Shown here one piece after another: positions 5,157 to 55,843 of a stretch of DNA of 64,000 nucleotides (within the stretch, counting starts at the first letter, position 1; each line of letters begins with the position of its first letter). Position numbers and translations under genes: made by a program. The stretch is from the NCBI GenBank assembly GCA_016844925.1, contig JAERTI010000038.1, forward strand, positions 130,936-194,935, given 5' to 3'. This DNA is from Candidatus Uhrbacteria bacterium (GTDB lineage: Bacteria > Patescibacteriota > Patescibacteriia > UBA9934 > GWF2-40-263). Under the pieces are notes generated by a model that saw nothing but the letters and a program-made list of their open reading frames with translations, had not been told where the DNA came from and did not search any database.

Positions 5157-5327
5157 CTAGAAACCGTTGATGAGCGGGAGCGGCGGCTCGGTGACGTCTC
5201 CCGTGGGGAGGATTCCTGCGCAGACAAGGGCGCTCCACAGGATGAAGCCCAGCATGAGCAGGATGCTCACGCGCATGACCCATTCCCAGGCGGACGGTGG
5301 TTCGTCGTTTTGTCGATGTCGTTCCAT
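5157..5327 (-). CDS. candidate small membrane protein (~56 aa)
   Basis: Minus-strand ORF with an ATG at 5325-5327. A GGAGG sequence sits 3-4 nt upstream on the minus strand. There is one hydrophobic helix (VSILLMLGFILWSALVCAGIL). It lies in a GC-rich patch upstream of cysS, which appears leaderless. Confidence 0.25.
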   Translation of the reverse strand: MERHRQNDEPPSAWEWVMRVSILLMLGFILWSALVCAGILPTGDVTEPPLPLINGF

Positions 5328-6869: not shown

Positions 6870-7439
6870 ATGCCTGACCCAAACCGCGCAGAAGAAAAAG
6901 AAGCTCCGATAAAAACGGAGCAGATTTCGGCACCTGAACAAGTACGAGAAGTTCCGGCAGCACCTGAGGTTACCCCTGAGGCAGTTTCGGCTATTGAAGC
7001 TGAACCGACTGTAGAGGCGGCACCAGAACGTGAGCCTGAGCCAGAAGAGAAGGCGGTCGAAAAAGTGACCGAAGCACCTGTTGTTCAAGAGCCTGTCACC
7101 ACACCCGTTGTGGCTCCGGCACCTGCACCTCAGAAAGATCGTCTAGAAAAAGAAATCGAGGCGATTATGGAAGAGGATCTGATGGATCTCTATCTAAAGC
7201 TTCCGCCAGATAAGCAGCAGGCGTTCAAGCTCAAGGGTGAAGAAACGCTCGGAAAGATTCGGCAGCTTGTGACAGCTTCAAAGATTAACGCGAAGAAGAT
7301 TTTCTCTTTGATTCGCGATTGGTTGAAGATGGTTCCTGGAGTGAACAAGTTTTTTCTTGCTCAGGAAGCCAAGATCAAAACAGATAAGATTCTCCTTGTG
7401 ACGGAGGAAGAAAAGAAACGCGCACAAGACGAACTGTGA
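6870..7439 (+). CDS. Pro/Glu/Ala-rich hypothetical protein with a conserved-looking C-terminal domain
   Basis: The N-terminal half is low-complexity PE/A-rich (APEVTPEAVSAIEAEPTVEAAPEREPEPEE). The C-terminal ~90 aa are non-repetitive. Its stop overlaps the start of the next gene (ATGA). The start is uncertain (ATG at 6870, or TTG at 6849). Confidence 0.5.
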   Translation: MPDPNRAEEKEAPIKTEQISAPEQVREVPAAPEVTPEAVSAIEAEPTVEAAPEREPEPEEKAVEKVTEAPVVQEPVTTPVVAPAPAPQKDRLEKEIEAIMEEDLMDLYLKLPPDKQQAFKLKGEETLGKIRQLVTASKINAKKIFSLIRDWLKMVPGVNKFFLAQEAKIKTDKILLVTEEEKKRAQDEL

Positions 7440-9994
7440 TGTATCTCTTTCAATTCGGTCTAACACCAGAGCCCGAGCCAGTACGTGTGGTGGCCCAGGG
7501 GGATCTTTTTATTCCTACGTTGATTTTGGCCGGTGTAGCAGCGTTGCTGATACTCATCGCACTGTTGTTCGTCGCGCGATTCTTTATTCGACGCATGTCA
7601 ATTGCCAAGCAAGGAACATTTCGTCGAGTGACACTGCTTATTACGTTGCCGAAGTTTAAGCGAGTTGAGGAAAGTGAACGTGGTCCATCGAAAGATGCGG
7701 TGCAGGAAGCAATTGCTGCCGCTGAGACCTTTTATTCTGCCATTGGTGGTTTGAAGGCTGAACGTGGACTTAAGGCTTGGCTCTACGGACGTCGTGACGA
7801 AATTTCTTTTGAGATTGTTGCCGAGGATAAGCTCGTGAAGTTTTATATTACGGTGCCTGTTGAAATGAGGGAGTTTATTGAGCAGCAACTTTCAGCGGCT
7901 TACTCAGACGCTTACACAGAAGAGGTTGAGGATTACAATTTGTTCCAGCCAGATGGTGTAATTCTCGGAAGCCATTTGATTTTGAAGCGTCAGCACGCAT
8001 TTCCCATTAAGACGTACAAGCAGCTCGACAAAGACCCCCTTAACGCTATTACAAACGTTCTTTCTCAAGTTCCAGATGGTGAAGGGGCGGCGTTTCAGTT
8101 TATTGTTCGATCAAGTTATGCCAAGTGGCGAAAAAAAGGAGTGACTATTGCGAGCAATATGCAACAGGGCATGAAGCTTGAGGATGCTATCCGCGGAAAG
8201 AAAGGAAAGAAAACGAACTGGTGGGAATTAGCAGGTTTTGGGAGTGGGTCGCAGCCTGAGCCAGAGAAGGACCACAGGCTCTCTCCACAAGAAGAACAGA
8301 TTGTAAAAGGAATCGAGGAAAAGGCGAGTAAGGCTGGTATGGATGTCTGTATTCGTCTTGTGGTTGCATCTAAACGTGCCAGTAGTGCTGAGACACTCAT
8401 GCGCAACATGCTTAACGCGTTTGCGCAGTTCAATATTTATCAGTACGGAAACTCGTTCGACAAAGTTGTTCCACGATCGAAGAAAAAAATCATCACGAAC
8501 TTTATCTATCGTTCTTTTGATGAGAGTCGCCGTTTGGTCTTGAACACGGAGGAGATGGCGAGTTTGTGGCACTTGCCGCTTCCGTGGACCGAGACGCCGA
8601 ATATTAAGTGGCTTGGTGCACGTAAGGGGCCTGCACCAGCGGAAGTTCCTGGGCCGGAGCCAGGAGCCTTGCACATGGGTTACAACAACTATCGTGGCGT
8701 GAAGACGGATATTTACATGAAGGGCAAGGACCGTTCCCGTCATATGTACCTTATTGGTAAGTCTGGTTCTGGTAAGTCGCAAACCATGGCGAAGTACATC
8801 ATTGATGATATTAAAAACGGACATGGTGTTGCTCTTGTAGAACCTCATGGGGACCTTGTTGAGCAGGTGCTTGGAAATATTCCAAAGGAGCGCATTGATG
8901 ATGTGATCGTGTTTAATCCGTCTGATTTGGAGCGACCGATGGGATTGAACATGCTTGAGGCACCAAATGCCGACATGCGTGACTTTGCGGTGCAGGAAAT
9001 GATCTCGATCTTCTATAAGCTGTTCCCACCAGAAATGATCGGTCCGATGTTTGAGCACCAGATGCGTAACTTCATGCTCACACTGATGGCTGATTTGGAT
9101 AACCCTGGAACTATTGCGGAGATTCCTCGCATGGTGACAGACCAAAAGTTCCAAGATAAGTGGCGCGCAAAGCTGACGGATCCTGTGGTGAAAAGTTTCT
9201 GGGAGGATGAAATCGATAACACCAGCGATTATCACAAGTCAGAGATGATGGGGTACCTGGTGTCTAAGGTAGGTCGCTTTGTGGAGAACGAGATGATGCG
9301 AAACATCATTGGTCAGTCCAAGAGTAGTTTCGATTTCCGTGAGATCATGGACAACAAGAAGATTCTTTTGGTGAACTTGTCCAAAGGTAAGACGGGTGAT
9401 GTGAACGCTGAGCTTCTTGGTTTGGTGATTGTGTCGAAACTCCAGATGGCGGCACTTACTCGAGCGGACATTCCTGAGGAAGATCGTCATGACTTCTTCC
9501 TGTATATTGATGAGTTCCAAAACTTTATTACCGATTCCATTGCCGTGATTCTTTCTGAGGCACGTAAGTACCGACTAAACCTGGTTATTGCCCACCAGTA
9601 CATCGGACAATTGGTGAAGAATGGCGATGCCACCATTAAGGAGGCGGTATTTGGTAACGTTGGTACAACATTTGTGGCGCGTATTGGTCCTGAGGATGTG
9701 GAGACGCTTGAGAGGATTTATACGCCAAACTTTACAGGGTACGATTTGATCAACTCGGACAAATACACCTGGTACGTTAAAATGATCGCAGACAACTCTC
9801 AGCTCAAGCCGTTTACCATGAACCTGACTCCGGCTGGTGATGGCGATCCTGAGCTTGCTGACGCGATTAAGCAGTTATCACGTCTCAAATACGGACGTGA
9901 CCGCGCGATTGTGTCTGAGGAGATCATTGAAAGAACACAAGTAAGTAAGACAGGCGCTAAAGAAGCGGCTCCTATGGGGGGCTTGAACAAATAA
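7436..9994 (+). CDS. conjugation/type IV secretion-type P-loop ATPase (VirD4/TraG-TraD- or VirB4-like, DUF87-like) with N-terminal TM helix
   Basis: N-terminal TM helix (LILAGVAALLILIALLFVARFF). Walker A motif YLIGKSGSGKSQT. Walker B motif FFLYIDEFQNF. The downstream motif RKYRLNLVIAHQYIGQL is typical of T4SS coupling/VirB4-type ATPases. The protein is 852 aa. Confidence 0.7.
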   Translation: MMYLFQFGLTPEPEPVRVVAQGDLFIPTLILAGVAALLILIALLFVARFFIRRMSIAKQGTFRRVTLLITLPKFKRVEESERGPSKDAVQEAIAAAETFYSAIGGLKAERGLKAWLYGRRDEISFEIVAEDKLVKFYITVPVEMREFIEQQLSAAYSDAYTEEVEDYNLFQPDGVILGSHLILKRQHAFPIKTYKQLDKDPLNAITNVLSQVPDGEGAAFQFIVRSSYAKWRKKGVTIASNMQQGMKLEDAIRGKKGKKTNWWELAGFGSGSQPEPEKDHRLSPQEEQIVKGIEEKASKAGMDVCIRLVVASKRASSAETLMRNMLNAFAQFNIYQYGNSFDKVVPRSKKKIITNFIYRSFDESRRLVLNTEEMASLWHLPLPWTETPNIKWLGARKGPAPAEVPGPEPGALHMGYNNYRGVKTDIYMKGKDRSRHMYLIGKSGSGKSQTMAKYIIDDIKNGHGVALVEPHGDLVEQVLGNIPKERIDDVIVFNPSDLERPMGLNMLEAPNADMRDFAVQEMISIFYKLFPPEMIGPMFEHQMRNFMLTLMADLDNPGTIAEIPRMVTDQKFQDKWRAKLTDPVVKSFWEDEIDNTSDYHKSEMMGYLVSKVGRFVENEMMRNIIGQSKSSFDFREIMDNKKILLVNLSKGKTGDVNAELLGLVIVSKLQMAALTRADIPEEDRHDFFLYIDEFQNFITDSIAVILSEARKYRLNLVIAHQYIGQLVKNGDATIKEAVFGNVGTTFVARIGPEDVETLERIYTPNFTGYDLINSDKYTWYVKMIADNSQLKPFTMNLTPAGDGDPELADAIKQLSRLKYGRDRAIVSEEIIERTQVSKTGAKEAAPMGGLNK

Positions 9995-12186: not shown

Positions 12187-12393
12187 AAAAAGGCGCCCGC
12201 AAGGATCCGTTGACGCTCGAATTCGCTCATGTTATCCTGCTGGCGCAACGATTCGAATAGCCTATTGTGTCTGGTCGTTTTGTGCACATTCCCGGAAGTG
12301 ACAGCTGACGATACAGTCACATCCGGTCGTTCCGTTCGGCAGTGAAGAAAGAGCTGGCACCATGACAGCTTTTTCTTCACTGCCTCACTACAC

Positions 12394-12467
12394 TCCCGGA
12401 TCGTCTAATGGCAGGACGAGTGGTTCTGGTCCACTAAATCGGGGTTCGAATCCCTGTCCGGGAACCA
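12394..12467 (+). tRNA. tRNA-Gln (anticodon CUG)
   Basis: Manual fold of a 74-nt sequence. Acceptor TCCCGGA/TCCGGGA. D-stem GTCT/GGAC with GG in the loop. Anticodon stem AGTGG/CCACT with loop TTCTGGT, giving anticodon CTG. T-arm CGGGG-TTCGAAT-CCCTG. Discriminator A plus an encoded CCA. Confidence 0.8.
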
Positions 12468-12509
12468 AGAAAGAACTGATGTAGTAGCATCGGTTTTTTC
12501 TTTTGCCCT
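12442..12509 (+). repeat. attL-type direct repeat: tRNA-Gln 3' end (T-arm to CCA) plus the downstream terminator-like hairpin
   Basis: gggttcgaatccctgtccgggaaccaagaaa matches 21787-21817 perfectly (31 nt). The following ~35 nt (hairpin catcggttttttctttt) are near-identical to 21818-21849. Confidence 0.75.
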
Positions 12510-12518
12510 AGTCATAAA

Positions 12519-13667
12519 CTAGGCTTCGAACGCATTATCTGAACCAGAACGTGGAGCATAGACATTTTGTGATGTGTCCGTATTGTGTCCAAAGGTGACC
12601 CATTCGCACTCTAATGTCATCACGGCTTGTCGCGCTGTTTCGTCTGCCACATGAGCATATCGTTCCGTCATTTTAATGGAACTGTGACCCATGAGCTTCT
12701 GCACCACACGCGTCGGAATCCCTTTTGCTGTTAGATCGGTCCCAAAGGTGTGGCGCAGTGTGTGCCAGCCAATTTTTCGCAACCCAACACGCTTGCAAGT
12801 ACGTGCCAATGCCTCTGACGACGCAGATCGACTCAAGGCCCCGCCATTTGCAGGACTTGTAAACACGAGCGACCCGTTATTAACGAGTTGCCACGTCGTT
12901 AGCGCTTGGTGTAGCGACGGTGTCATGTGGGCATATCGCACCTGATTGGTTTTAGTAGACTCAATCTTCTTGCCGGCTTTGTTTCGCCGAATACAGATAT
13001 GACCAGTTTCCAAATCAACGTCTTCCCAATGCAGAGCTAGTAGCTCCCCAATGCGCATTCCTGTGCGTACTGCCATAAGAGCCATGAGATTCCACCTCGG
13101 TTCTTTCTCGTCTGAAAGCAGCTTCTTGATCTCACTCTCTTTGAGGAAGTCAATCTTCGGCGCCTGCGATTTCAACCATTGCACGCTGGGAAGTTTCTTA
13201 ATATAGCCCCACTCATGTGCGCATTTAAGAACCTTGTTTAGAACGCTCAAATGATTATTGATCGTCTTGGCACCAATAGGCTTGCCGCGGAACGTCTTAC
13301 TTTTCTGACCACCCTTGAATCGCTCGATGGTTTGCGTAGTAACATCTCCTAACTTCAATTTCCCGAAGAATGGCACAAGGTGATTGTTTAGGATTGCCGC
13401 CTTACGCTTCACCTCTGATGACTTGTTATTCGTCCGTACATACGTTTCTGTCCACTCAGTCGCAAAGTCAACAAAGAGCGTGTCGCTTTTGTCTTCTTCT
13501 GGTTTCTTCGCGTAGGGCGACCCTGTGCGTAGATAGTTTTCCGTCATGATGCGCTCGATCGCTAGCGCACCCTTCTTGGTTCCATCCGGCGAAACTTTAC
13601 GAAACCTATCGCGTCCAAGACGTATGTCGGCATGCCATTTTCCTCGAATGATATTTGCCATACTCAT
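12519..13667 (-). CDS. int: tyrosine-type site-specific integrase
   Basis: The C-terminal catalytic region has R...HTLRHTFGTDL...MGHSSIKMTERYAHV (the R-H-R-Y tetrad). It is adjacent to a tRNA. Confidence 0.9.
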   Translation of the reverse strand: MSMANIIRGKWHADIRLGRDRFRKVSPDGTKKGALAIERIMTENYLRTGSPYAKKPEEDKSDTLFVDFATEWTETYVRTNNKSSEVKRKAAILNNHLVPFFGKLKLGDVTTQTIERFKGGQKSKTFRGKPIGAKTINNHLSVLNKVLKCAHEWGYIKKLPSVQWLKSQAPKIDFLKESEIKKLLSDEKEPRWNLMALMAVRTGMRIGELLALHWEDVDLETGHICIRRNKAGKKIESTKTNQVRYAHMTPSLHQALTTWQLVNNGSLVFTSPANGGALSRSASSEALARTCKRVGLRKIGWHTLRHTFGTDLTAKGIPTRVVQKLMGHSSIKMTERYAHVADETARQAVMTLECEWVTFGHNTDTSQNVYAPRSGSDNAFEA

Positions 13668-13879
13668 ACTTCTGTTATCGCTTCAAAGCTCGATTCATCC
13701 AAGAATCGTGCCACGTCCGATTCACGGATCCTCAAAAGGCCACGGATCTTGCAGAACCGAATCTGTCTGTCATCTATCATCCGGTAGACAGTCTGCCGTG
13801 AAACCCCTAGAAGTTTTGCCACAGCTATCGGATCCAGTAATCGTTCGATGACGCTAGATTGTTGCCTTGAAGCGTCCAT
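13664..13879 (-). CDS. xis: excisionase/AlpA-family helix-turn-helix DNA-binding protein
   Basis: LLDPIAVAKLLGVSRQTVYRMIDDRQIRFCKIRGLLRIRESDV is an excisionase-family HTH. Its stop overlaps the integrase start. The internal ATG at 13879 was chosen (72 aa); the ORF track gives 13948. Confidence 0.7.
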   Translation of the reverse strand: MDASRQQSSVIERLLDPIAVAKLLGVSRQTVYRMIDDRQIRFCKIRGLLRIRESDVARFLDESSFEAITEV

Positions 13880-13964
13880 ATTTAATTGTGAATGAGCAGG
13901 TCCGAGTGAAAGTATGTTGGTATGCCATACCTTCATTGGGCTACTCAATTATGCGGTCAGTTTG

Positions 13965-14507
13965 CTAATTTTCAAAATGATTTAGGTTTCTGAAGTTGGG
14001 AGCTAGTCGCTGTTGTCGTTGTAGGAGTCTCCGATAGCGTTTCGTTGGTCGCCCGTGCCAGTATTTGATCCTCAGACTTTCAATGATGTGCAACACACGG
14101 TCATAAGTACAAAATCCTTCAAAGGCTCCGACCAGTCCGCTGCGTGGTAGACGCTGTGAGCGATATGCAAGGCCGTAACACTCTCTGCATCCAAAGTACT
14201 CTCCTACGAGATACAGAACGGCACAGCGGCGCTTACACGGCCTTCCTCTAATGACAAGTGGGCAAATGAACCAGTAGCGCTGGCCGCCAAAGAAACAAGG
14301 GGTTGATGTGAGTTTAACTGGATAGTTCTGTGGTCCATGCCGAAACCTTGCATGTCCGTTGTTTGCATCAACAGATACTTTTGCCTCCAGTCCCTGTGAC
14401 CATCGGATACCACCACTCTTTGCTACTGGTTCGAAGTATCCATACTCACGTAGGTCAAATACACTCAGGTTTTCATGTCTTTCGCAGTCTGGTCGGTGCA
14501 TACTCAT
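13965..14507 (-). CDS. Cys-rich hypothetical protein (island-encoded)
   Basis: ORF of 180 aa with several Cys pairs (CPLVIRGRPCKRRC...CRECYGLAYR). No known family recognised. Confidence 0.45.
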   Translation of the reverse strand: MSMHRPDCERHENLSVFDLREYGYFEPVAKSGGIRWSQGLEAKVSVDANNGHARFRHGPQNYPVKLTSTPCFFGGQRYWFICPLVIRGRPCKRRCAVLYLVGEYFGCRECYGLAYRSQRLPRSGLVGAFEGFCTYDRVLHIIESLRIKYWHGRPTKRYRRLLQRQQRLAPNFRNLNHFEN

Positions 14508-14527
14508 TTGCCGAAATCAATAGGAGT

Positions 14528-14845
14528 TCATCTTGTCCTGTGATAATGCTTACATCGCTCTTCATAGCTGAAACATTCTTTTGGAATCCATGCGCGATAG
14601 CCACATTCATGGATACAAGACTCACGAATCGCCTTCTTTCGAATTGTTAAAAACAATCCTTCCTTGTAGCACCATGGACATCGTTGCTTAGTTGATTTAT
14701 TGCGTTTGAAACGAGATTTCTTTTCAAAAGACTTGTTTATCCCTCCTGTGTTGGGGGATTTGTTACTGAGTTGCTTTGTAGAGTTGTTTGTAGACATAGA
14801 ATTAAACCCGAAGTATAGAAAAGCGGTTGCAACAGGATGTCTCAC
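14528..14845 (-). CDS. small zinc-ribbon-like protein (island-encoded)
   Basis: CPWC...CIHEC...C.....C pattern in a basic protein. The start may be the internal Met of MSTNNSTK (14797). Confidence 0.4.
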   Translation of the reverse strand: MRHPVATAFLYFGFNSMSTNNSTKQLSNKSPNTGGINKSFEKKSRFKRNKSTKQRCPWCYKEGLFLTIRKKAIRESCIHECGYRAWIPKECFSYEERCKHYHRTR

Positions 14846-15101
14846 CTATAATCGGATGTTGGGCTATGGCTGCAAGCTCAACTCGTTGTAGAAGATGTCC
14901 CCAAAAGGGGTATCGAGCAGTTTTGCGACATAACGAATACTTGGTCGAACAAAAATCTCCACACCTATTTCGTAGCCCTGTGCCAAGCCACAAAAGAGAT
15001 GCAGAGATCTTTGGCACAGACCCTATTGAAACAAAAAACTATCGTACTGAAACGATAGCATCGCTTTCGGGGGTTTAGTGACAACAGGATTGATCCTGCT
15101 G

Positions 15102-15788
15102 TCACTCAGTCCTTTGGGCTTTCTTAACTTCTTTTTGAAATCGATAGATCATTCTTTTAATCCGTAGTGTCTCTCGTATGAATTCTTCATCTGTTGCATC
15201 ACTAGACACTTCCACCAACTGTGAAAACATGGGTTTCACTTCGTTGCCATCTGCATCAATCATCGTTTTTAACGATTTCCACTTGCAGTAGTAGCGATAA
15301 GCCTCCCCTAAATCTTCCTTGCTAGTAATAGGTTCCATCCAGTCCGAATCAGAGAGTTTTGACATGATCCTGCCAACAACTAGGTATGTATCATTCCAAT
15401 TCTTTTTTGAAACAGGTCCATGAAGTTTAACCGTAACGGTATCGGGTTCTTTAGGTTTTTGAATCACGCGAATGTTACTTGGTGCCGCAATGATTTGATC
15501 ACCAAATTTTACAATCTCCTCTACTGCGCCCCTGAATTGTTCTCCCAACATGTTTTTCTTCATAAAAGACCCAATAGCATCTTTCCAGCCATTAAGACGG
15601 TCAGAAGATTCGCATAGCCAAGTAGTCCATGATTCGATGGCTTCAAGGTCTCGTCTGAGCAGATCACTTGGTATACCAAATTTACGACGCAGCCTATTCA
15701 GGTCCTCGATAGCCCGGTCAGAAGCAAGTAAAATATAAAGTTTATTCCTGTTAATCCGTTTGTCCGCTGGCACAGATTTTTTAGTCAT
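15102..15788 (-). CDS. hypothetical protein (island-encoded)
   Basis: ORF of 228 aa. It is the first gene of the minus-strand int-proximal block, and a divergent promoter region lies upstream (15789-16042). Confidence 0.5.
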   Translation of the reverse strand: MTKKSVPADKRINRNKLYILLASDRAIEDLNRLRRKFGIPSDLLRRDLEAIESWTTWLCESSDRLNGWKDAIGSFMKKNMLGEQFRGAVEEIVKFGDQIIAAPSNIRVIQKPKEPDTVTVKLHGPVSKKNWNDTYLVVGRIMSKLSDSDWMEPITSKEDLGEAYRYYCKWKSLKTMIDADGNEVKPMFSQLVEVSSDATDEEFIRETLRIKRMIYRFQKEVKKAQRTE

Positions 15789-16042
15789 ACTTGTGACAAC
15801 TTAACACAAAGAGATTGATTTTTCAGCAAAATACGGTAGACTGAGTTCACAATTGCCTAAACTCACATTCGTGAGCATGGCACTTAAATCACACGCAAAC
15901 AGAGACGGTCTCGTGGCCGGCACTCATTTGCGTGTGTCCATTCCCGAAAGGGTCTGGGGCGAGCTTCCGAAAGGTTGCCGTCGTCGGTTCACGGGACCTT
16001 TTGTGTTACGTGAATCTCTAATTCAAAAACACACACAAAACT

Positions 16043-16555
16043 ATGTCTGATACAAAAAAGTCCATTTACAAAAAATGGTGGTTCTGGCTTCTAACCGTTT
16101 TCATCTTCTTCATGTTTATCGGAGCGTTTGGCTCTGGACCGGTGGAAACCATCGATACACCGGCAACGGATACGGTACAAGATGATGAGTCGGTAGCGAT
16201 TATCGACACACCACGCATTCTTAGTATGACGATCGACGAGGTCCGCGATGAGCTAGGTATGCCATTGGAAGACTCCTTCATTGACCCGACCTCCGAACAA
16301 ATCTATGACGAATCCATGACATGGATGAATGAATATGAGATTAGCGATTATATGTTCGTCATTGAATGGAATGCGACCTCTAGGAACGTCACAGGCGTGT
16401 TTGTCGCAACAGATGATCCAAGTGGTGCAACCAAGGATTGGGAGGTACTCGTACCGCTTCTAGGACTCCCAGAGGACACATCTGACTACCTTATTGATGC
16501 GGTTGAGGTTATATCCGATCCGAGTCAGTATACGGGAGTAAATGTGAGTCGGTAA
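16043..16555 (+). CDS. membrane-anchored acidic hypothetical protein (island cargo)
   Basis: N-terminal TM helix (WWFWLLTVFIFFMFIGAF) followed by a D/E-rich soluble domain. Confidence 0.5.
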   Translation: MSDTKKSIYKKWWFWLLTVFIFFMFIGAFGSGPVETIDTPATDTVQDDESVAIIDTPRILSMTIDEVRDELGMPLEDSFIDPTSEQIYDESMTWMNEYEISDYMFVIEWNATSRNVTGVFVATDDPSGATKDWEVLVPLLGLPEDTSDYLIDAVEVISDPSQYTGVNVSR

Positions 16556-16612
16556 GCAACACAAAAAACACCTTTATTTTTAGGTGTTTTTTGATTAAAA
16601 TGGACAACGAGA

Positions 16613-17158
16613 TTGTTGATCGGCATGTCATTAGATAAAGATCCAATTTTAGCGGGGCAGCCAAGTATTTCGACCGGTGGTGCGGAGTACGATTTTGTGA
16701 ACCTCTCAGAATCCGTAATCGAAGTTGTGAGTATAAATGTTCAATTGGTATGGGTTATGGGAAGATTTAACAAAAGTACAACCCCAATAAGAGTTATAAA
16801 AAATGCTCAAAACATGTTCCTTAGTGAGGAAATAAAATCACGTGATGAATTTTGGAAGGAGCATTGCGCGGCTTCAATGCGAGAGCTGATGGACAAGCAC
16901 TTTCATCAAAACTGCGCAAGATTTCTCGCCTCCGTACCTAAGAGACAGCACTCGGATGATGCGAGGAAGTTGCATGAAAGATTGAACAAACATAAGGATT
17001 TTCTAAACGATTTTTCTCACTTTAAACATTCTGCGATTGAGCATGCTAAGGTTCTTCTTGGCCGTAACGTAGCGTCATTAGGTGAAGAAGATTTCGATAA
17101 ATTGTGTACCAGCTTCTTGATTGACTTAAGTGACTACTTTAGCTTCAAGAAAAGATAA
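16613..17158 (+). CDS. hypothetical protein (island cargo)
   Basis: ORF of 181 aa (the start may be later). AT-rich. It is 2 nt upstream of the 1013-aa ORF. Confidence 0.45.
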   Translation: MLIGMSLDKDPILAGQPSISTGGAEYDFVNLSESVIEVVSINVQLVWVMGRFNKSTTPIRVIKNAQNMFLSEEIKSRDEFWKEHCAASMRELMDKHFHQNCARFLASVPKRQHSDDARKLHERLNKHKDFLNDFSHFKHSAIEHAKVLLGRNVASLGEEDFDKLCTSFLIDLSDYFSFKKR

Positions 17159-17160
17159 AT

Positions 17161-20100
17161 ATGGATCAGATTGAGTTGCATAAATTGATAGACTTGATAG
17201 TAAGCAAGCCACCTAGTGATTCTTTAAAAGAAGAATTGACGGCTTTGCTGCAGATTAACGCTGATGCGCGTGTATATTTCTTCGAGAACGTGGATGACCG
17301 ATGGCTGGATTGGCTTTGGAGAAATAATTTTCTCGATGTGCTGAAGGCTGGTGTTGAAAATTCAATTCGATACAGATACAAAACCCCGGAATTATTTTAT
17401 CTATCACGAATTTCTCAAACGTCCCCAGCGCCAGTTGTAGACACCATGCTCCAAGTCGAAATCTCTAAAGAGAATTTTAACCCGGAAGTTGTCGATCAAT
17501 TTTTGCGAATCGCTAGTGAACTTCCAGCGACTGAAATTGCGAGACTTGTCTTGAAAATAAAAGAAGAAAATTGGGTTGAGTTAATGAGTGCATTCAATGA
17601 CTGGGGCTTTGAATACAAAAAGATGTTTGAAGCCTTATCTGATGCGGGAGATCATGAGTCTTTGCTGACATTAGCTGAAGCTGTATTGTCCATTAAAGAC
17701 CAAAAGGCTTATAAAGAAAATTCGGGAGATTATTTTGGCGGAAACCCATTCTACTTCAAGGACTTATCATACTCATCAGTTTTTGCGTGTCTCACCGAAG
17801 TGGCGCACGACAATGTAGAGAAGGCATTGAGTATTGCTTGCAGCGCCCTATCTGCGATAGTCCAACTTGGTGACAGGGCTGGAGAGGATAGTTACTTTGA
17901 ATACAAGGATGGGTTCTATCTGTACGATACGGATTTCTTCAAGCTTGATTTGGTTAAAGAAACGAATAACTCAGATCGTGAGAATGTAAAGTCGTTGGCA
18001 GCGAGTATAAAAAAACTCGTTCAACGTGTATTTGAAAATCGTAATAAAGAGACCTCATCGAACATATTTGAAAAATATATTGAAGCGCTCCCATCCAGCC
18101 CTGCGATGTGGAGGTTGAAACTGTATGTCCTTAGTTTGCACCCAGAGTCCTTAAAAGAAGTTGCCAAAAAATACTTCTCCGCACTTTTTGACTCAATAAA
18201 ATCAAACAAGGGCTACTATGAAATTGCATCGGGCGCAGAATACAAGAAATCTCTCAAGAAGTGTTTTAGGATTTTTGATTCAGAATATCAACGCGACTAT
18301 GTTGCCAATGTCTTTAAATGCTTCTCTAGTAAACGAGATGATGAAAGAGAGGAAGGGTTGTACCAACGTACTGGTTGGGAAATCCTTTCTTCGATTTGTG
18401 ATAGCTTGAATAAAAAAGAACAAGAAGAGTGTGAAAAGGTTTTTGGTAAAAAATGTAATGCCGAGTATGAGCCACAACCGCTCATAGGAAAGATGCGCGG
18501 CGGCATGATTTCGCCACGCGGCCTTATCTCACAAGAAGAATTCGATGCCATTGACGTTGTGGACATTGTTGAAAAATTGAAAGATGAATGGACGCCTGAA
18601 CGTCTTAAGGAATCGAATCATTTTGACAATTTTACAAATCCAGTAAATGCAGAGGGTGTCGGGTCACAAATTCAATCCAGCATAAAAAATCGTCTAACTG
18701 ACTTCGCTCCTCATGCAAGTCTCTTCTTTGAAAGAGGTATCTTAGATGAACATTACACCCAATCTTTTTATAGAGGTATCTGGGAAGCTATTCGTGCAAA
18801 TAAAGAAGAGGCTCGCAGAGTTGACTGGGGTAGCCTAGTGAATGCAATTTTTGACATCGTCCGGTCAGGGGCAGAAAAGCCCTTTGATTTCAGTAAGCGA
18901 GAACGTGAAAGATTTGGCGGGTGGCTTGCTAGTTGGGAGGGTGTCCACAGCATCATTGCAGACGTATTGCAGGAGTTGTTAAGTGAAGTAGATGGTGAAC
19001 CTTTGGTGAACTTTGCTGAAGACAGGAATGAAATTTTCAAAATTCTCTCGTACCTTTTGCAGAATTCCGATCCGAAACCAGAGGATGAAGAATTGGAGAC
19101 GGCGGTGTCTAAGACACGATTGCCGGGCGGGAAGGATGAATACCTTGTTAGTGACCCGTTTAGTATTGCAATAAATTCAGTTCGAGGACGAGCCTATCAA
19201 GCATTGGCTCTGTTTGTGTATCAGGACGGAAAGGGTTTCCTGAAAGATGCTGCCGTAAAAATTGCTGATGATGTGAAAGGTGTGTATGAGCGGCTGTTAA
19301 AAGGAGAGAATACACGAGCTATTATGTTCTTGTTTGGGCATTATCTGCCATCTTTCTATTTTAGAGATAAGGAATGGATTCGTAGCCTCTTGCCATCAAT
19401 CTTTACAACGAATACAGAGAGGTTGTATTTGTACATCGCTGCATGGGAGGGTTATCTTGCGAACAATTTATACGAAGAAATCTTCTTTGAAACAGAATTT
19501 CAAAAACTCTATATGCGAGGGCTTGGAGTGGCCGGAAGTCAAGATCCAAATCGTAAGTATTTCAAAGAACCGGATGAAGGACTAGCAGTTCACCTTGCAC
19601 TAGCTTTCATGGTCTATCATCAGAAATTTGGTTTTGACGATGAGTTGTTTAAAAAGTTTTGGCAGCAAGATGTTGAACAGCAAGTAAAATTTGTCAATTT
19701 CATTGGACGAATGTTTGTATCCGGTGATAACAAACAGGCAAACAAACTCTTAGAAAATGAGCCGCTTGTGAAGCAGCGATTGATCGAATTTTGGGATTGG
19801 GCTATTGCGAACAAAGAAGAGAAGAAATTATTCTCAGGGTTCGGTTATTGGATGAGTCTTGACAAAAATATCTTTGAACCAAAGTGGCTAGCAGAACGGA
19901 TTGCGCAAACTTTGGAAAAAACAAGTGGTGCATTGGATTGGGAATATGGTCTAAGTAAAACCATCATCAAATTAGCCGAGGAAGCACCGGAAGAAACATT
20001 AGCGATAATTAGATTGTATTTATTGGAGGGCGGAGTGCGTAATAAACAACTGAAAATGCCATTTATGCGGTCTGATGAATGGTTTGAGGCGATTGGCATT

Positions 20101-20202
20101 CTATACAAAAAAGCAGAAACAAAAGATGGTACATATAGGCTTATCAATGACCTAATCGCTGAAGGGGGAAATCTCTTTTGGAAATTAAAAGAAGTTCTGT
20201 AA
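17161..20202 (+). CDS. large (1013 aa) predicted all-helical hypothetical protein (island cargo)
   Basis: A long uninterrupted ORF in an AT-rich context. It has no Walker A/B, no nuclease, no LanC/CHG motif and no TM helix. Confidence 0.6.
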   Translation: MDQIELHKLIDLIVSKPPSDSLKEELTALLQINADARVYFFENVDDRWLDWLWRNNFLDVLKAGVENSIRYRYKTPELFYLSRISQTSPAPVVDTMLQVEISKENFNPEVVDQFLRIASELPATEIARLVLKIKEENWVELMSAFNDWGFEYKKMFEALSDAGDHESLLTLAEAVLSIKDQKAYKENSGDYFGGNPFYFKDLSYSSVFACLTEVAHDNVEKALSIACSALSAIVQLGDRAGEDSYFEYKDGFYLYDTDFFKLDLVKETNNSDRENVKSLAASIKKLVQRVFENRNKETSSNIFEKYIEALPSSPAMWRLKLYVLSLHPESLKEVAKKYFSALFDSIKSNKGYYEIASGAEYKKSLKKCFRIFDSEYQRDYVANVFKCFSSKRDDEREEGLYQRTGWEILSSICDSLNKKEQEECEKVFGKKCNAEYEPQPLIGKMRGGMISPRGLISQEEFDAIDVVDIVEKLKDEWTPERLKESNHFDNFTNPVNAEGVGSQIQSSIKNRLTDFAPHASLFFERGILDEHYTQSFYRGIWEAIRANKEEARRVDWGSLVNAIFDIVRSGAEKPFDFSKRERERFGGWLASWEGVHSIIADVLQELLSEVDGEPLVNFAEDRNEIFKILSYLLQNSDPKPEDEELETAVSKTRLPGGKDEYLVSDPFSIAINSVRGRAYQALALFVYQDGKGFLKDAAVKIADDVKGVYERLLKGENTRAIMFLFGHYLPSFYFRDKEWIRSLLPSIFTTNTERLYLYIAAWEGYLANNLYEEIFFETEFQKLYMRGLGVAGSQDPNRKYFKEPDEGLAVHLALAFMVYHQKFGFDDELFKKFWQQDVEQQVKFVNFIGRMFVSGDNKQANKLLENEPLVKQRLIEFWDWAIANKEEKKLFSGFGYWMSLDKNIFEPKWLAERIAQTLEKTSGALDWEYGLSKTIIKLAEEAPEETLAIIRLYLLEGGVRNKQLKMPFMRSDEWFEAIGILYKKAETKDGTYRLINDLIAEGGNLFWKLKEVL

Positions 20203-20282
20203 ACAAATCAACTATGACTCATTTTACTAAACTGGATATAAATAAGATGAACGTTTTGCGGGTAGGTTAACAGCGGAGTTGT

Positions 20283-20891
20283 ATGTCTAACGAATGGAAC
20301 GATTTAATTTCTCATCCAAACCACACCTTGCGTATTGGTGGAATTGAGATTGAGGTACATGATCAAGTATTTACACCAAATCCGAGTATTACATTTTCTA
20401 GCTCCATGATCCTCGATCATTTACCAGATGTGAATGGTAAACGCATACTAGATGTTGGCTGCGGGACAGGAGTTGTTGCCGTTCATTGCGCACTCGCTGG
20501 CGCAGGGCATGTTACGGCGGTCGACATTTCTAATAAGGCCATCAATAATACTCGTATCAATGTTGCGAAGCATGGCGTGGAGAAAGTTGTCACGGTGAAA
20601 AAATCAGACCTTTTTAGTAAAGTAACTGGACAATTTGATTATATTTTTGCAAACCTACCTATCTTAGAGGAGGTTTGGTCAGCGGATACGAACGTGGACA
20701 ATCTGATCGAACGTTTTGTCACAAAATATCCTGAATATCTCAATAGGGACGGATCAGCATTCTTTGTGTGGGGTTCTTTTGCTGACATCGCACCTGTGCT
20801 GGCGTTATTAGATCGGTGTAGAATTATTTTCACCCAAACGTCAGTAGAAAAACTGGGATACACGTGGACGTTGTTTGAATTGAAAAAATGA
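20283..20891 (+). CDS. class I SAM-dependent methyltransferase (PrmA/MTS small-domain-like)
   Basis: Motif I ILDVGCGTGVVAV. The acidic residue VTAVDIS. FDYIFANLP resembles the PrmA/MTS (D/N)-x-P-type motif. The assignment as a protein or RNA MTase rather than a DNA MTase is tentative. Confidence 0.7.
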   Translation: MSNEWNDLISHPNHTLRIGGIEIEVHDQVFTPNPSITFSSSMILDHLPDVNGKRILDVGCGTGVVAVHCALAGAGHVTAVDISNKAINNTRINVAKHGVEKVVTVKKSDLFSKVTGQFDYIFANLPILEEVWSADTNVDNLIERFVTKYPEYLNRDGSAFFVWGSFADIAPVLALLDRCRIIFTQTSVEKLGYTWTLFELKK

Positions 20892-20892
20892 T

Positions 20893-21594
20893 ATGCCATT
20901 AGATAAAGTTACCTTTCAGAAGGATTGGTATGACCGCCTTGTATCCAAAACCAATGAAAAGACCGTTTTGCCTGACGCCATTAAATCACTTGTTTCAGAT
21001 CAGAGTGGTCATTGCTTGGAGATTGGCCTTGGAACATCGCCATTCTTTGCACAAAAGCTCGCCGATCAATTCGACAAGTACACCATTTTGGAAAAAGAGA
21101 CGGGAGAATATGAACTCCCAACTAACGCAGAGTTTATTGTTGGCGACTGGGAGTCGTATGGGTCACCAGACTTGTATGATGTCATTCTTGCATCTCATGT
21201 CGTCTACTACTTTGACGACAAACGTGCTGCTATCGACAAGATGGTTAACAAGCTCACAGAGAATGGCAAGCTACTCATTGTTGTGAATGGGTGTGATGGT
21301 GATTACGGACCGCTCAAATTAGCGTTTTCCGCTATGGTCAATCATCCGTATACGTTCACATACGATGTGGTTAAAGCTGTCTTGGACAGATACACATATA
21401 CCGAGCATAGCTTTCCGACAACGATTCCATTTAGTTCAGGTACCGATTTATTCGAAACACTCCGACTTTCCTTTGATCAGTACCCTGATGAGTATGAGGC
21501 GCACAAAGACGAGTTAATCACTTACTACGAAAATCAGACAAAAGACAATCTGTTTGTTATCAACCAGAAGGTGTTCGTTATTCAATCAAAATAA
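20893..21594 (+). CDS. class I SAM-dependent methyltransferase (Methyltransf_11/25-like)
   Basis: GHCLEIGLGTSP (motif I), an acidic loop, and DLYDVILASHVVYYFD (motif II/III). It starts 2 nt after the preceding MTase. Confidence 0.65.
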   Translation: MPLDKVTFQKDWYDRLVSKTNEKTVLPDAIKSLVSDQSGHCLEIGLGTSPFFAQKLADQFDKYTILEKETGEYELPTNAEFIVGDWESYGSPDLYDVILASHVVYYFDDKRAAIDKMVNKLTENGKLLIVVNGCDGDYGPLKLAFSAMVNHPYTFTYDVVKAVLDRYTYTEHSFPTTIPFSSGTDLFETLRLSFDQYPDEYEAHKDELITYYENQTKDNLFVINQKVFVIQSK

Positions 21595-21596
21595 TA

Positions 21597-21680
21597 AAAC
21601 ACCCCTCTCACATTCCCCGAACCTGCGTGTGTCCGCAATGTGTCCGTTTTGCGCCCAAAAATGTGAGTGAGGGTGTTTTA
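21597..21680. repeat. long imperfect inverted repeat (arms ~19 nt, spacer ~45 nt containing a gtgtccg x2 direct repeat)
   Basis: aaaacacccctctcacatt ... aatgtgagtgagggtgtttt. It lies immediately after the last cargo gene and before attR, and is followed by a T-rich run. Confidence 0.5.
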
Positions 21681-21786
21681 TTGTGTGTAAGCGTGAGAAT
21701 CGTGAGAAAGCAACTTTGACCAATGTTTACGGCCTCATTAGAATCTTTTCCGTAATCCTAGCCACGTCCTGAATCCTTGCATGGGA

Positions 21787-21849
21787 GGGTTCGAATCCCT
21801 GTCCGGGAACCAAGAAAAAACCGATGCAAGCGCATCGGTTTTTTCTTTT
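21787..21849 (+). repeat. attR-type direct repeat (partial copy of the tRNA-Gln 3' end plus terminator hairpin)
   Basis: The 31-nt sequence gggttcgaatccctgtccgggaaccaagaaa is identical to 12442-12472. It is followed by the hairpin accgatgcaagcgcatcggt plus TTTTTTCTTTT. No 5' acceptor half is present upstream. Confidence 0.75.
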
Positions 21850-32831: not shown

Positions 32832-34054
32832 ACATGTTTTCACCTGGGCGCAGGGAGCGTAGGGAGGAACCAGCATTTCATTACGAGCTATTAGAGAATC
32901 CGAAAACACGAGAAGATCTTTTAAGGGGCATGGATAATCTCATGGAGACTATTCAGGACCGAGATGTTGATACGGTGGTCTTCCTTGATCGCTCAGCACG
33001 ACCACTCTCCTGGCTTATGCGGGAGCGATGGCGATTATCTGATAGCGACAAGCCCATGCCGGAGATGAAGTTTGTGAATATTGGCCTAGCCACTTCGGTT
33101 CATCCTGGATCGAGAGATCTCACGATTCCAGGAGGAGGGGCGTATTATCCATATCCCTCATCTAGTTCCCGACAGGATTTTGTGAGGAAGAAGATGATGA
33201 GCAATCAATGGTTATCACCTGAGGATGTTCCCACCCGATGGTCGGAGGGGTTGTTGGATCATGAAGATGAGGTACAGGAACTTGAAGATGTGTTTGGGTC
33301 GAACTTAGATGGAAAGCGTGTTTTGGTGGTTGATGAAATGGTAAACACGGGAAAGAATCTTTTAACGGCGGTCTCCCTTTTTTCTTTGATGTTTCCAAAA
33401 TTGAAGGAGGTTCAGGGAACAGCGTTCAAACTTTCTAAGGGGATGGGGTATGACGAAGACCGGAAAGCAATTCCTTGGTTAAAGATGCCTGGCATGACTG
33501 GCGTACTGGAGCTGCCAGACAGGTTATTCCAGTCGGGAGCGATTACCGCGGAAAATTTGGAGAGTATTCGTGATGCACTTAGGCAAGAAAGGAAACGTGA
33601 GGTGAAGACATTGGGTGAGTCGCTTTTACCCGCGATGAATGTGTTGGATAAAGTCGTGGATCAGTGGGATGAGATTAAGGCTCATAAGGGGTTTGATCAG
33701 CGGTACATTACGGTGATTGAAAGAGATCTGGAATCCGCTCGTAAAACGATGAGAGCCTTTCTCGATACGGGTGAGCATGGTTTTACACCTGAATACGAAA
33801 AACAGATGTACGATTTGTCTATCGCGTTCGGAGGGTTAAGTAATGATGTGGGAGATGCGCCATTTGCACAGATGTTGCATGAGGCCGCGCATCTGACTGA
33901 TAAGGTTGATTATGAGAAGGGGCACAAAACGCTTCAGGAGATCGATCAATACCTGGATGCCGATTATGCTGACTTGGAGGCGTTGAGAGCGCGTGCCACG
34001 ACTCTACGAAAGGAGATTAAGGAGCTTGCAAAAGAGACGTACGAAGTCTTTTAA
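32828..34054 (+). CDS. phosphoribosyltransferase-domain protein with long C-terminal extension of unknown function
   Basis: Type I PRTase PRPP-binding motif VLVVDEMVNTGKNLLTAV. The C-terminal ~200 aa are unassigned. Its start overlaps the stop of the beta-CASP gene. Confidence 0.6.
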   Translation: MNMFSPGRRERREEPAFHYELLENPKTREDLLRGMDNLMETIQDRDVDTVVFLDRSARPLSWLMRERWRLSDSDKPMPEMKFVNIGLATSVHPGSRDLTIPGGGAYYPYPSSSSRQDFVRKKMMSNQWLSPEDVPTRWSEGLLDHEDEVQELEDVFGSNLDGKRVLVVDEMVNTGKNLLTAVSLFSLMFPKLKEVQGTAFKLSKGMGYDEDRKAIPWLKMPGMTGVLELPDRLFQSGAITAENLESIRDALRQERKREVKTLGESLLPAMNVLDKVVDQWDEIKAHKGFDQRYITVIERDLESARKTMRAFLDTGEHGFTPEYEKQMYDLSIAFGGLSNDVGDAPFAQMLHEAAHLTDKVDYEKGHKTLQEIDQYLDADYADLEALRARATTLRKEIKELAKETYEVF

Positions 34055-34120
34055 AAAAGAACCATTGCACCCTGGTCATGCCAGGGTGTTTTTGTTACTG
34101 TCGCGGCGAAGGAGGACAAC

Positions 34121-35362
34121 ATGTCCAACAAGCTGCCCGATGACGTCTCTCCTGAGACGTTCGCACTGCACGGAGGGTACGACCCCGCTCGATCCGAGGG
34201 GGCGCTCAAGCCGCCCGTGTTTCAGACCTCCACGTTCGTGGCAACCACGGCCGAGGAGATGGCACGATGCTTCGAGCAGGCCTATGGCCTTGATGGTCAG
34301 CCTCCACGTGCGCCCGATGAGCTCATCTATTCGCGCGTGGTGAACCCGAACCTGCAGATCACCGAAGAGCGGTGGGCGCGGTTCGAGGGAGCTGAGGCGG
34401 CCGCCCTGTTCGCCAGTGGCATGGCCGCTATCTCCACCACGCTGCTCACCCTGCTACGGCCGGGAGATACGGTGATGTACTCCACCCCGGTGTACGGTGG
34501 GACGGACTACTTCATGGAGCACGTGCTCCCGGCCTTCAAGATCAAGACGGTTTCGTTCCCGGTGACGCTCTCTGCCGAGCGGATCTACGCCAAGTGGATC
34601 AACATGGATCCCAGACCCAAGGTCATCTATCTCGAGAGTCCTGCCAACCCCACACTGGAGCTGGCGGACCTCGGTGGAATGGCCGGGGCATTCCAGGGAC
34701 CGGAAGGCCGTCCGCTCATCGTGGTGGATGGGACCGTGCTCGGCCCGGTGTTCATGAAGCCGCTGGCGCTGGGGGCAGACCTGGTGCTGCACTCGGCCAC
34801 CAAGTCCATCGGCGGTCATAGCGATCTGATTGCCGGCATCGTCGCCGGCCCCGCGTACCTCGTGGGACAGATCAAGGCGATGCGAACCATCATGGGCCCC
34901 ATCTGCGACCCGCAGACGGCGTGGCTCATCGCCCGCAGCCTCGAGGACTACAAGGTCCGCGTGGAAGCAGCGCAGCACAAGGCCCTCAAGGTCGCGCGCT
35001 TCCTGCAGGAGCACGATGCTGTGCACCGGCTCTACTACCCGGGCATGCATCCTAGTCGCGATCAGGGGGAGCGCTTTCAGCAGATGTGCAGCGGTCACGG
35101 CTCGCTCATGAGCTTCCGTGTCCGAGGTGGCCAGGAGGCGGCCTACCGCGTGCTCAACGCCCTGCGCGTGATCAAGCTCGCGGTCTCTCTCGGGGGCACC
35201 GAGTCGCTCGCTGAGCATCCGCGGACGCACACCCACAGCGACATTCCGCTGGCGGCCCAGGACAAGATGGGCATCACGCCCGACCTGATCCGTCTCTCTG
35301 TCGGTCTGGAGGATGCCGACGACTTGATCGACGATCTGGATCAGGCGCTGGAGCTGATCTAG
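34121..35362 (+). CDS. Cys/Met-metabolism PLP-dependent enzyme (cystathionine gamma-synthase / methionine gamma-lyase / O-acetylhomoserine sulfhydrylase family)
   Basis: The SATKSIGGHSDLIAG PLP-lysine region and the overall family pattern. Good SD (AAGGAGG). The gene is conspicuously GC-rich. Confidence 0.85.
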   Translation: MSNKLPDDVSPETFALHGGYDPARSEGALKPPVFQTSTFVATTAEEMARCFEQAYGLDGQPPRAPDELIYSRVVNPNLQITEERWARFEGAEAAALFASGMAAISTTLLTLLRPGDTVMYSTPVYGGTDYFMEHVLPAFKIKTVSFPVTLSAERIYAKWINMDPRPKVIYLESPANPTLELADLGGMAGAFQGPEGRPLIVVDGTVLGPVFMKPLALGADLVLHSATKSIGGHSDLIAGIVAGPAYLVGQIKAMRTIMGPICDPQTAWLIARSLEDYKVRVEAAQHKALKVARFLQEHDAVHRLYYPGMHPSRDQGERFQQMCSGHGSLMSFRVRGGQEAAYRVLNALRVIKLAVSLGGTESLAEHPRTHTHSDIPLAAQDKMGITPDLIRLSVGLEDADDLIDDLDQALELI

Positions 35363-35479
35363 AACACACGCCGACCCTCATGTGAGGGTCTTTTTTCTTT
35401 TAACAAACAATCATGCCGCCATTGACATCTGTACAAAAACGGACTAGGTTACGGCGTCGCATACGGCGGCAGAAAGGGG

Positions 35480-35989: not shown

Positions 35990-36077
35990 CAAGAATCCAC
36001 AACGCAATCTACAGACCTCACTGAGGTCTTTTTCTTTTCAATCACCCCTTTATCCGCTACCATGCGCGCATACAACT

Positions 36078-52967: not shown

Positions 52968-53078
52968 AGTGCTCAGAAGTATACCAGAAAATGGGGGTGT
53001 ATCGATTGACAGAGCGCGTTATCTATGGTGGACTTGCCTCGTCCACACATTTGTTCACATGGATACAAGGAGACCACC

Positions 53079-53828: not shown

Positions 53829-53859
53829 GAGCCGGTCTTGACCGAACACGCTTCGGTCC

Positions 53860-53886
53860 GCGTCCCCAGGGACGCGTTTTTTCTTT
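53860..53886 (+). terminator. rho-independent terminator
   Basis: gcgtccccagggacgc followed by gttttttctttcttc. Confidence 0.7.
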
Positions 53887-53991
53887 CTTCAATAAAATCA
53901 AGTCAACGCCTTTGGTGGGTTGACGTTTTGCGATTATTCCGCTAATTTTCGTCCCTCACGTCCGAAGTGAACATCTACAAGGGAGGACTAC

Positions 53992-55815: not shown

Positions 55816-55843
55816 ACGCACGGTTGAGCCCCACGCTCAACAC

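Follow-up and report, generated by a model that had tools for sequence, protein, structure and literature searches.

The DNA analysed here, hereafter the window, is a 64,000-nucleotide (nt) stretch of a Candidatus Uhrbacteria contig (JAERTI010000038.1). We assign positions 12442-21849, with high confidence, to an integrative genomic island of about 9.3 kb, inserted at a tRNA-Gln gene of a Ca. Uhrbacteria-like genome. The island carries genes for a tyrosine integrase (int) and an excisionase (xis) and, on the opposite strand, a closely spaced gene pair encoding a small helical protein of 177 amino acids (aa) and a helical-repeat protein of 1013 aa. We favour, with moderate confidence, the overall reading that this is a tRNA-Gln island with a sensor/effector defence pair resembling Dsr1. 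The features on which this reading depends are the following.

12394-12467, plus strand: intact tRNA-Gln(CUG), the integration target (ARAGORN, CTG anticodon; Rfam tRNA, 56.7 bits)
12442-12504, plus strand: attL, one copy of the 63-nt repeat, with the identical 31-nt core at 12442-12472 (repeat search, three-way alignment)
12519-13667, minus strand: tyrosine integrase, 382 aa (PF00589, E = 2.3e-35; SAM-like N-terminal domains; PHROG 1, E = 4e-66)
13664-13948, minus strand: excisionase-type helix-turn-helix protein (HTH_17, 9.1e-14; TIGR01764 'excise', 1.5e-12; PHROG 66)
16625-17158, plus strand: all-helical protein, 177 aa, the detached N-terminal (putative effector) domain of a Dsr1-like family
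17161-20202, plus strand: alpha-solenoid protein, 1013 aa (PADLOC Dsr1, E = 2.7e-20; AlphaFold2 (AF2) model all helical, predicted local distance difference test (pLDDT) score 89.4)
21787-21849, plus strand: attR, the second 63-nt copy, holding the tRNA 3' part only and a perfect terminator hairpin at 21812-21847

An island at the 3' end of tRNA-Gln

ARAGORN and Rfam agree with the initial annotation on a complete 74-nt tRNA-Gln at 12394-12467, and 26 nt at its 3' end fall within the attachment (att) core. A repeat search of 12.0-22.5 kb returned a sole long direct repeat, 63 nt long and 90% identical between attL and attR, much as the imperfect duplication of about 60 nt had been described. 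The 31-nt identical start of the repeat consists of the 26 nt of the tRNA 3' end (T-arm to CCA) and 5 further nt. When the 64-kb window was searched with a 25-nt pattern of the core and a tolerance of 3 mismatches, exactly two matches were obtained, with 0 expected from 100 shuffles; further att copies, which would have pointed to tandem islands, are absent. The second copy had been read as the tRNA 3' portion (31/31 nt) with a terminator-like hairpin and not as an independent tRNA, and this reading stands: ARAGORN calls no tRNA at 21.7 kb, and what lies 5' of the second copy bears no resemblance to the 5' half of the tRNA. The hairpin at attR is perfect, with 16 pairs, and its counterpart, the terminator-like hairpin formed by the distal 32 nt of attL, is imperfect. 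The perfect hairpin would be the original host terminator, and the distal part of attL would be the element-derived P' side.

The integrase gene adjoins tRNA-Gln and overlaps xis by 4 nt. Its catalytic R/HxxR/H/Y residues are legible in the translation (...GMRIGE..., ...WHTLRHT..., ...GHSSIKMTERYAH...). The initial annotation of adjacent minus-strand integrase and AlpA/Xis-like genes was correct as to the integrase residues and the excisionase; the family of the latter is HTH_17/excisionase and not strictly AlpA. Two further features lie just within the island ends.

12573-12591, plus strand: two copies of TGTGTCCR (12573 and 12584), 11 nt apart, inside the int 3' end; candidate arm-type integrase-binding site (repeat and pattern search)
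21593-21682, plus strand: long hairpin enclosing the second TGTGTCCG pair (21628, 21639); candidate operon terminator and/or P-arm integrase-binding region

Folded as DNA, the right-hand hairpin reaches -19.4 kcal/mol (z = -6.6), and 0 of 200 shuffles were as stable. The TGTGTCCR pairs have the same 11-nt spacing at both ends, the right-hand pair lying in the hairpin loop, and they are plausible arm-type integrase sites.

The island is clearly foreign in composition. Its GC content is 0.43, and that of the cargo (16043-21594) 0.411, against 0.525 in the remaining window; the cargo GC gives z = -4.0 relative to 174 outside windows, and the tetranucleotide distance (z = 5.9) lies above all 73 outside windows. 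The AT-rich cargo noted at the outset is thus borne out by both measures. Searches of 12.4-21.85 kb with Pfam, PHROGs, NCBIfam and PADLOC returned no phage structural, packaging, conjugation (relaxase or type IV secretion system, T4SS) or replication/primase genes, which bears out the initial annotation as to structural, conjugation and replication genes.

The nearest genome in a species-level collection is that of Ca. Uhrbacteria bacterium CG10_big_fil_rev_8_21_14_0_10_48_16 (PFEU01000016.1, here L014), with a DnaX 67% identical to that of the window. L014 is collinear with the window through dnaX and tRNA-Gln(CTG), and synteny returns at window position 27361. Between the tRNA and this point it has only a flavin adenine dinucleotide (FAD)-oxidase gene, with neither an integrase nor island genes. 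The anatomy, the foreign composition and the absence from the nearest genome all agree with the integrase/excisionase island, bounded by attL and attR, that had been proposed at the tRNA-Gln 3' end. A pattern covering only the tRNA matched two short contigs from the Joint Genome Institute (JGI) metagenomes (L094 and L095), which come from another organism and carry an identical tRNA-Gln followed by a different gene. As genes 3' of tRNA-Gln differ across genomes, this flank looks like a general hotspot of variable genes. The gene that follows the tRNA in L094 and L095, read by eye from its translation, is nucleotidyltransferase-like. A 39-nt imperfect inverted repeat (77% complementary; 12321-12401) lies just 5' of the window tRNA-Gln and overlaps its 5' end, and a comparable hairpin is visible 5' of the identical tRNA in L094.

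Integration would have proceeded by recombination, catalysed by the island integrase, between attP and the 3' end of tRNA-Gln(CUG), with attP mimicking the last 26 nt of the tRNA and its terminator. Such mimicry would keep the tRNA whole at attL, with attR retaining a 3' fragment and the terminator of the original site, and the overlapping xis-int operon would reverse the reaction. The predicted attB junction of the empty site is ...CCACTAAATCGGGGTTCGAATCCCTGTCCGGGAACCAAGAAAAAACCGATGCAAGC and the predicted attP junction of the circular form is ...CTTGCATGGGAGGGTTCGAATCCCTGTCCGGGAACCAAGAAAGAACTGATGTAGTAG.

The sensor family and its small helical domain

The 1013-aa protein has no match in Pfam, NCBIfam or PHROGs. 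In PADLOC, its residues 269-985 (717 residues in one collinear stretch) align with positions 556-1197 of the 1227 positions of the Dsr1 profile (PDLC04166), and the match covers the sensor part, not the SIR2 part; no second PADLOC family is matched. The same model is matched by 26 of 38 diverse relatives (best 3e-29), none of which matches another of the 5027 PADLOC models. Searches of Pfam, NCBIfam and PADLOC gave no SIR2 match for either protein of the pair. Similarly, no library reported a STAND (signal transduction ATPase with numerous domains) NTPase, whether as P-loop or NB-ARC, in the large protein, and its AF2 model consists entirely of helical repeats. On these profile matches, the 1013-aa protein is a member of the Dsr1-type sensor family.

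The family is large and unevenly distributed. A word-indexed search gave 195 matches at 40-58% identity, and an exhaustive search gave at least 2603 cluster representatives (50% identity), 548 of them at E <= 1e-30. Database relatives include MBP7796669.1, MBI3589495.1, MBI4117681.1, OGI65977.1 and MCY3899904.1. Named members are scattered over Patescibacteria, Omnitrophota, Elusimicrobia, Chloroflexi and Spirochaetes. The single match in a plasmid collection is a 789-aa hypothetical protein of Legionella pneumophila (NZ_CP016871.1, L096; 3708-6077), 22.6% identical to the C-terminal 385 residues of the sensor and encoded between IS3 and IS256 transposases on a conjugative plasmid.

The small gene ends 2 nt before the large one, and the two are probably translationally coupled. 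Relatives of the large protein fall into two length classes, of about 1000 aa and of about 1150-1210 aa, and the longer ones bear an N-terminal extension that stops where the window protein starts. This fused form makes up about 40% of the relatives listed. All 87 N-terminal extensions examined (87/87) are one domain family, to which the 177-aa protein also belongs (E = 7.7e-8; hhalign, 96.3%). It follows that a two-domain protein is encoded in split form at the window locus. Eight unfused contexts were examined, and each has an open reading frame (ORF) of about 178-236 aa directly 5' of the large gene; in six of the eight, the window included, this ORF is recognisable as the N-domain, in locus L098 as an uncalled ORF. 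Two fused relatives, P0138 (1313 aa) and P0260 (1293 aa), have two tandem copies of the small domain before the sensor.

A total of 193 homologues of the small domain are detectable, none with an annotation. Residues A82, R86 and H132 are invariant in the family and E87 is nearly so. The AF2 model of the window protein is a helical bundle (pLDDT 80), in which R86 and H132, 46 residues apart, lie on different helices. The invariance of these two residues suggests an effector of the nuclease or RNase type. Neither the small domain nor the SIR2-less subfamily has a model in Pfam, NCBIfam or PHROGs, a dedicated PADLOC model or a solved relative, and PADLOC gave nothing consistent for the small domain.

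Elsewhere, in other phyla, the pair is found beside restriction-modification systems of type II, type III, type ISP and MmeI, Mrr, a CAP12-type TIR protein, a cyclic-oligonucleotide-based antiphage signalling (CBASS) system with CD-NTase and Cap15, and a serine recombinase. These neighbourhoods are a classical defence-island signature. The last two neighbours occur together in locus L099 (1911-9291 of Omnitrophota metagenome-assembled genome contig JBDRQI010000030.1), where the pair lies between the CBASS operon and a 539-aa serine recombinase, which suggests another mobile defence island with a different type of recombinase. In locus L007, on a 346-kb metagenome contig, a block of HTH_17, DNA methyltransferase, DpnII, small, large and Mrr genes directly follows a tRNA gene (5255-5327); no repeat of the 3' end of this tRNA was found downstream and no integrase was seen within the locus.

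Proposed mechanism and the remaining cargo

Published work describes a common, homologous sensor, bilobed and sharply bent, in Dsr1 and the STAND protein Avs7 (PMC13581612, Nature 2026; preprint PMC12803255). The phage major capsid protein triggers both EcDsr1 and SeAvs7 and was the unique trigger in a screen of the genes of phage ZL19; the same sensor also occurs without an NTPase, with N-terminal effectors that range from NADases, nucleases and kinases to a HEPN-like RNase and some of no known type, and split proteins are mentioned for the superfamily (PMC13581612). Homology and gene neighbourhoods make a defence role for the small/large pair probable, and we hold it a little more firmly than the overall reading. 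By analogy with EcDsr1 and SeAvs7, the 1013-aa sensor would bind a phage structural protein, such as the major capsid protein. Binding would then release or assemble the 177-aa domain, which takes the position of SIR2 in Dsr1, as the effector, and this effector, through Arg86 and His132, would block phage replication. The specific mechanism of a capsid-sensing nuclease is put forward tentatively, as an analogy with these two proteins.

Several observations weigh against the reading of a mobile island with a Dsr1-like defence pair. In two of the eight unfused contexts, the upstream small ORFs (L005, 7387-8004; L101, 7333-8004) are not detectably the same domain: the hidden Markov model (HMM) of the N-domain misses them, and they are either too divergent or different. 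Here the sensor may work with a different type of partner or effector; read by eye, the L005 ORF opens with a hydrophobic stretch. The HEPN motif Rx4-6H is not conserved in the small-domain family, whose consensus (...SLREILYPF...) has no His 4-6 residues after the Arg, and the RELMDKH of the window protein is not a conserved feature. HEPN structures score no higher against the small domain than unrelated helical bundles do, and matches to Pfam PF18165 (pP_pnuc_1) all fall under the gathering score of 26.3 bits. As for the island, the nearest genome is distant and likewise lacks window 21.9-27.3 kb, with a major facilitator superfamily (MFS) transporter and four more genes (L014, 11842-14017), which makes this a region of variable content instead of an exact empty site. 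The exact attB junction pattern was unmatched in the JGI metagenomes, and no empty attB or excised circle was detected. The comparison with an empty site that the initial annotation had proposed thus yielded absence of the island from L014 and no precise empty site; we infer the mobility of the island rather than observe it. Finally, the Logan contigs of SRR13374099 that carry dnaX, the MFS gene and the island all end exactly in the 31-nt core, the island forming its own contig of 9374 nt. As an assembler with k = 31 breaks at a 31-nt repeat, giving the same contig topology for the integrated and the excised form, these breaks were rejected as evidence of an empty site and are uninformative on excision.

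Some of the same evidence bears on whether the pair is a conflict system that works unlike Dsr1 and Avs7, its solenoid sensing another phage protein, a nucleic acid or a host perturbation and its small domain being a non-enzymatic toxin, an adaptor or a regulator. No catalytic fold is assignable to the small domain, the Dsr1 homology leaves residues 1-268 unmatched, and the family profile reached no PDB sequence at E <= 1, the presence of SeAvs7 in the searched PDB copy being unconfirmed. A cryo-EM structure of SeAvs7 is published, and EcDsr1 itself is protective against few phages only (PMC13581612). However, a helical bundle with two invariant residues, Arg and His, at the position that enzymatic effectors occupy in other members, fits catalysis, and that the domain has repeatedly been joined to the sensor and split from it suggests that the two act directly together as effector and sensor. 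We consider such a different mode of action unlikely and retain the Dsr1-like reading of the pair.

The rest of the island consists of the following features.

13965-14507, minus strand: Cys-rich ORF, 180 aa (orf180); no match in four HMM libraries; gene present in the Logan assembly
15102-15788, minus strand: ORF, 228 aa (orf228); no library matches; gene present in the Logan assembly
15854-15979, plus strand: full-length LOOT RNA (Rfam RF03000), 61.6 bits against a gathering score of 46.4, model positions 1-121 of 121
16043-16555, plus strand: protein with an N-terminal membrane segment, 170 aa; weak N-terminal PHROG matches
16562-16593, after the 170-aa gene: bidirectional terminator-like hairpin
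20283-20891, plus strand: S-adenosylmethionine (SAM)-dependent methyltransferase MT202, 202 aa, MTS/HemK-like fold (PF05175, 3.4e-23; NF011529, 6.7e-29, below cut-off)
20893-21594, plus strand: probable class I methyltransferase MT233, 233 aa, a weak assignment (Methyltransf_11, 1.4e-4, just above the Pfam cut-off; Methyltransf_23, 6.8e-6, just below)

The initial annotation had held the cargo to be without assignable function. This no longer applies, as the cargo includes a Dsr1-family sensor, its detached N-terminal domain, two SAM methyltransferases and, in a supposedly intergenic gap, the LOOT RNA. The unassigned ORFs of the island match nothing in Pfam even at E <= 5.

Placed 63 nt 5' of the 170-aa gene, the LOOT RNA occupies the gap from which orf228 and the plus-strand cargo diverge, and a 65-aa ORF that overlaps it (15853-16050) is probably spurious. 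LOOT has been listed as a metagenome-derived family (PMC7779021). Viral contigs of IMG/VR carry it as well (L131/L138, 79.4 bits; L135, 47.1 bits), always on the same strand as the next ORF and 60-300 nt 5' of it. In L131/L138 it neighbours a reverse transcriptase and an ORF with weak portal similarity, and in L135 two DNA methyltransferases precede it. Its occurrence both on the island and on viral contigs makes LOOT look like an RNA of mobile elements or phages. LOOT as a component of the defence pair was rejected, since it is absent from seven other pair-bearing loci; the two methyltransferases and the membrane protein are likewise not conserved partners of the pair.

The LOOT-bearing viral contigs raise the alternative that the element is a decayed prophage or phage satellite, whose remnants would be int and xis, a number of regulatory genes, a small phage RNA and cargo of the moron type. 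The best PHROG matches of the integrase are phage integrase families, the 170-aa membrane protein has weak PHROG matches that include superinfection-exclusion families (E from 1e-3 to 4e-5), and three minus-strand ORFs have no known function. Nevertheless, we regard this origin as quite improbable. Capsid, tail, terminase, portal, primase and replication genes were all missing from the Pfam and PHROG results, and 9.3 kb is too small for an autonomous tailed phage. A backbone common to the island and the LOOT-bearing viral contigs was rejected, as no island protein had a tblastn match on those contigs; orf228 and orf180 have no relatives in IMG/VR, and the large protein is unmatched in 50,697 phage records. 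The element thus continues to be best read as an integrative island.

The last alternative, that the 1013-aa solenoid is a non-immune scaffold or accessory factor, for example for the adjacent methyltransferases, and merely carried on mobile DNA, draws on the generic protein-binding nature of solenoids (PDB fold searches gave only generic solenoids, with importins, CAND1 and HUWE1 among the matches) and on the methyltransferase genes that adjoin the pair in the window, L005, L007, L011 and L101, but is very improbable. The methyltransferases elsewhere are DNA methyltransferases of different families, each part of a complete restriction-modification system, and the pair has no methyltransferase as a conserved companion. 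Specific sequence similarity leads only to Dsr1, a validated defence protein, and the CBASS/TIR neighbours, patchy phylogeny and island carriage are hallmarks of defence. A methylation-associated defence system (MADS) built on xis and the methyltransferase was also rejected: mad1 matched xis (2.3e-4) and mad2 matched MT202 (3.2e-24, confined to the methyltransferase core), the remaining mad models had no match, so the full mad gene set is lacking, and the similarity is at the level of domains only.

Some features of the window lie apart from the island. ARAGORN calls a 98-nt tRNA-Ala(TGC) at 41550-41647 (plus strand), where Rfam reports no tRNA at its gathering score; this may be an intron-containing gene or a false call. 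GC content rises to 0.59-0.65 in 34000-36000 and 53000-56000 (window average 0.51), opposite in direction to the island. At 7388-9991 (plus strand), two genes 5' of dnaX, is a gene for a TrwB/T4SS-DNA_transf-like protein of about 850 aa with DUF8128. It is 78% identical to its counterpart in L014 (6773-9343), and this conservation marks it as a host gene outside the island.

Relationship to known systems

Genomic islands that target tRNA genes by means of a tyrosine integrase and an excisionase are an established general class. The element shares with them an int gene beside an intact tRNA, duplication of the tRNA 3' end as attL and attR, a xis-int operon, foreign composition and accessory cargo. 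It differs in its host, a member of the Patescibacteria or candidate phyla radiation (CPR), in its very small size without replication or transfer genes, and in an attP mimicry that extends to the downstream terminator hairpin, 63 nt in total. The island type is ordinary and its mechanism textbook; the host phylum is unusual. To our knowledge, defence in Patescibacteria is little characterised, and here a compact tRNA-targeting island carries a Dsr1-type sensor system into a genome of this group. LOOT, a metagenomic orphan family, gains a genomic setting on a mobile island and phage contigs.

Dsr1 stands for defence-associated sirtuin 1 and was reportedly described by Gao and colleagues in 2020 and Garb and colleagues in 2022. 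The pair shares with it the homologous C-terminal region of about 720 residues, the order in which an effector position at the N-terminus precedes a long helical sensor, the lack of an NTPase and the location in defence islands. In contrast to Dsr1, it has no SIR2, the effector position being held by an uncharacterised helical domain of about 180 aa, and it consists of two genes with a 2-nt gap where Dsr1 is a single-gene system. With no SIR2 anywhere in the pair, depletion of NAD+ is not expected. Avs7 has in common with the Dsr1-type systems a homologous sensor, sensing of capsid protein and many alternative N-terminal effectors (PMC13581612). In Avs7 a STAND NTPase module separates the effector from the sensor; the window protein lacks such a module, and any oligomerisation would need to proceed without ATP.

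The initial annotation had singled out the cargo as a candidate for an undescribed accessory system. This holds for the SIR2-less subfamily and the small domain, which are new to the libraries, and not for the sensor superfamily, whose swappable and sometimes split effectors were published in 2026; the logic of a sensor with exchangeable effectors is already on record (PMC13581612). PADLOC reaches the subfamily through the Dsr1 model alone. With the small helical domain, the Dsr1/Avs7 sensor superfamily would gain a further type of effector, and the natural split version is convenient for probing communication between sensor and effector. A broader hypothesis, more doubtful than the capsid-sensing mechanism, is that the domain represents a new class of immune effector within a large SIR2-less branch of Dsr1 sensors (at least 2,600 clusters at 50% identity), a branch often met with in Patescibacteria and further uncultivated phyla. 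On this hypothesis, the pair would serve CPR bacteria as a pattern-recognition receptor that detects structural proteins of phages, small islands at tRNA genes would spread it, and LOOT would be a regulatory RNA of mobile elements or phages.

Two comparisons concern the small domain itself. A HEPN-like RNase is attached to a Dsr1/Avs7-type sensor in Streptomyces sp. NBC_00271 (PMC13581612, Extended Data Fig. 2), with which the domain was compared by description only; Rx4-6H is unconserved in the small-domain family, whose invariant Arg and His are about 46 residues apart. PF18165 is the only recurrent Pfam similarity, found in 18 of 54 small-domain members and spanning both conserved motifs, but the best match reaches 18 bits (E = 0.0019-0.0023), the window protein is unmatched and no Argonaute gene lies nearby. 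Taken together, these sequence comparisons indicate that the pair is neither Dsr1, having no SIR2 and two genes, nor Avs, having no NTPase, and that it is not demonstrably HEPN or pP_pnuc_1.

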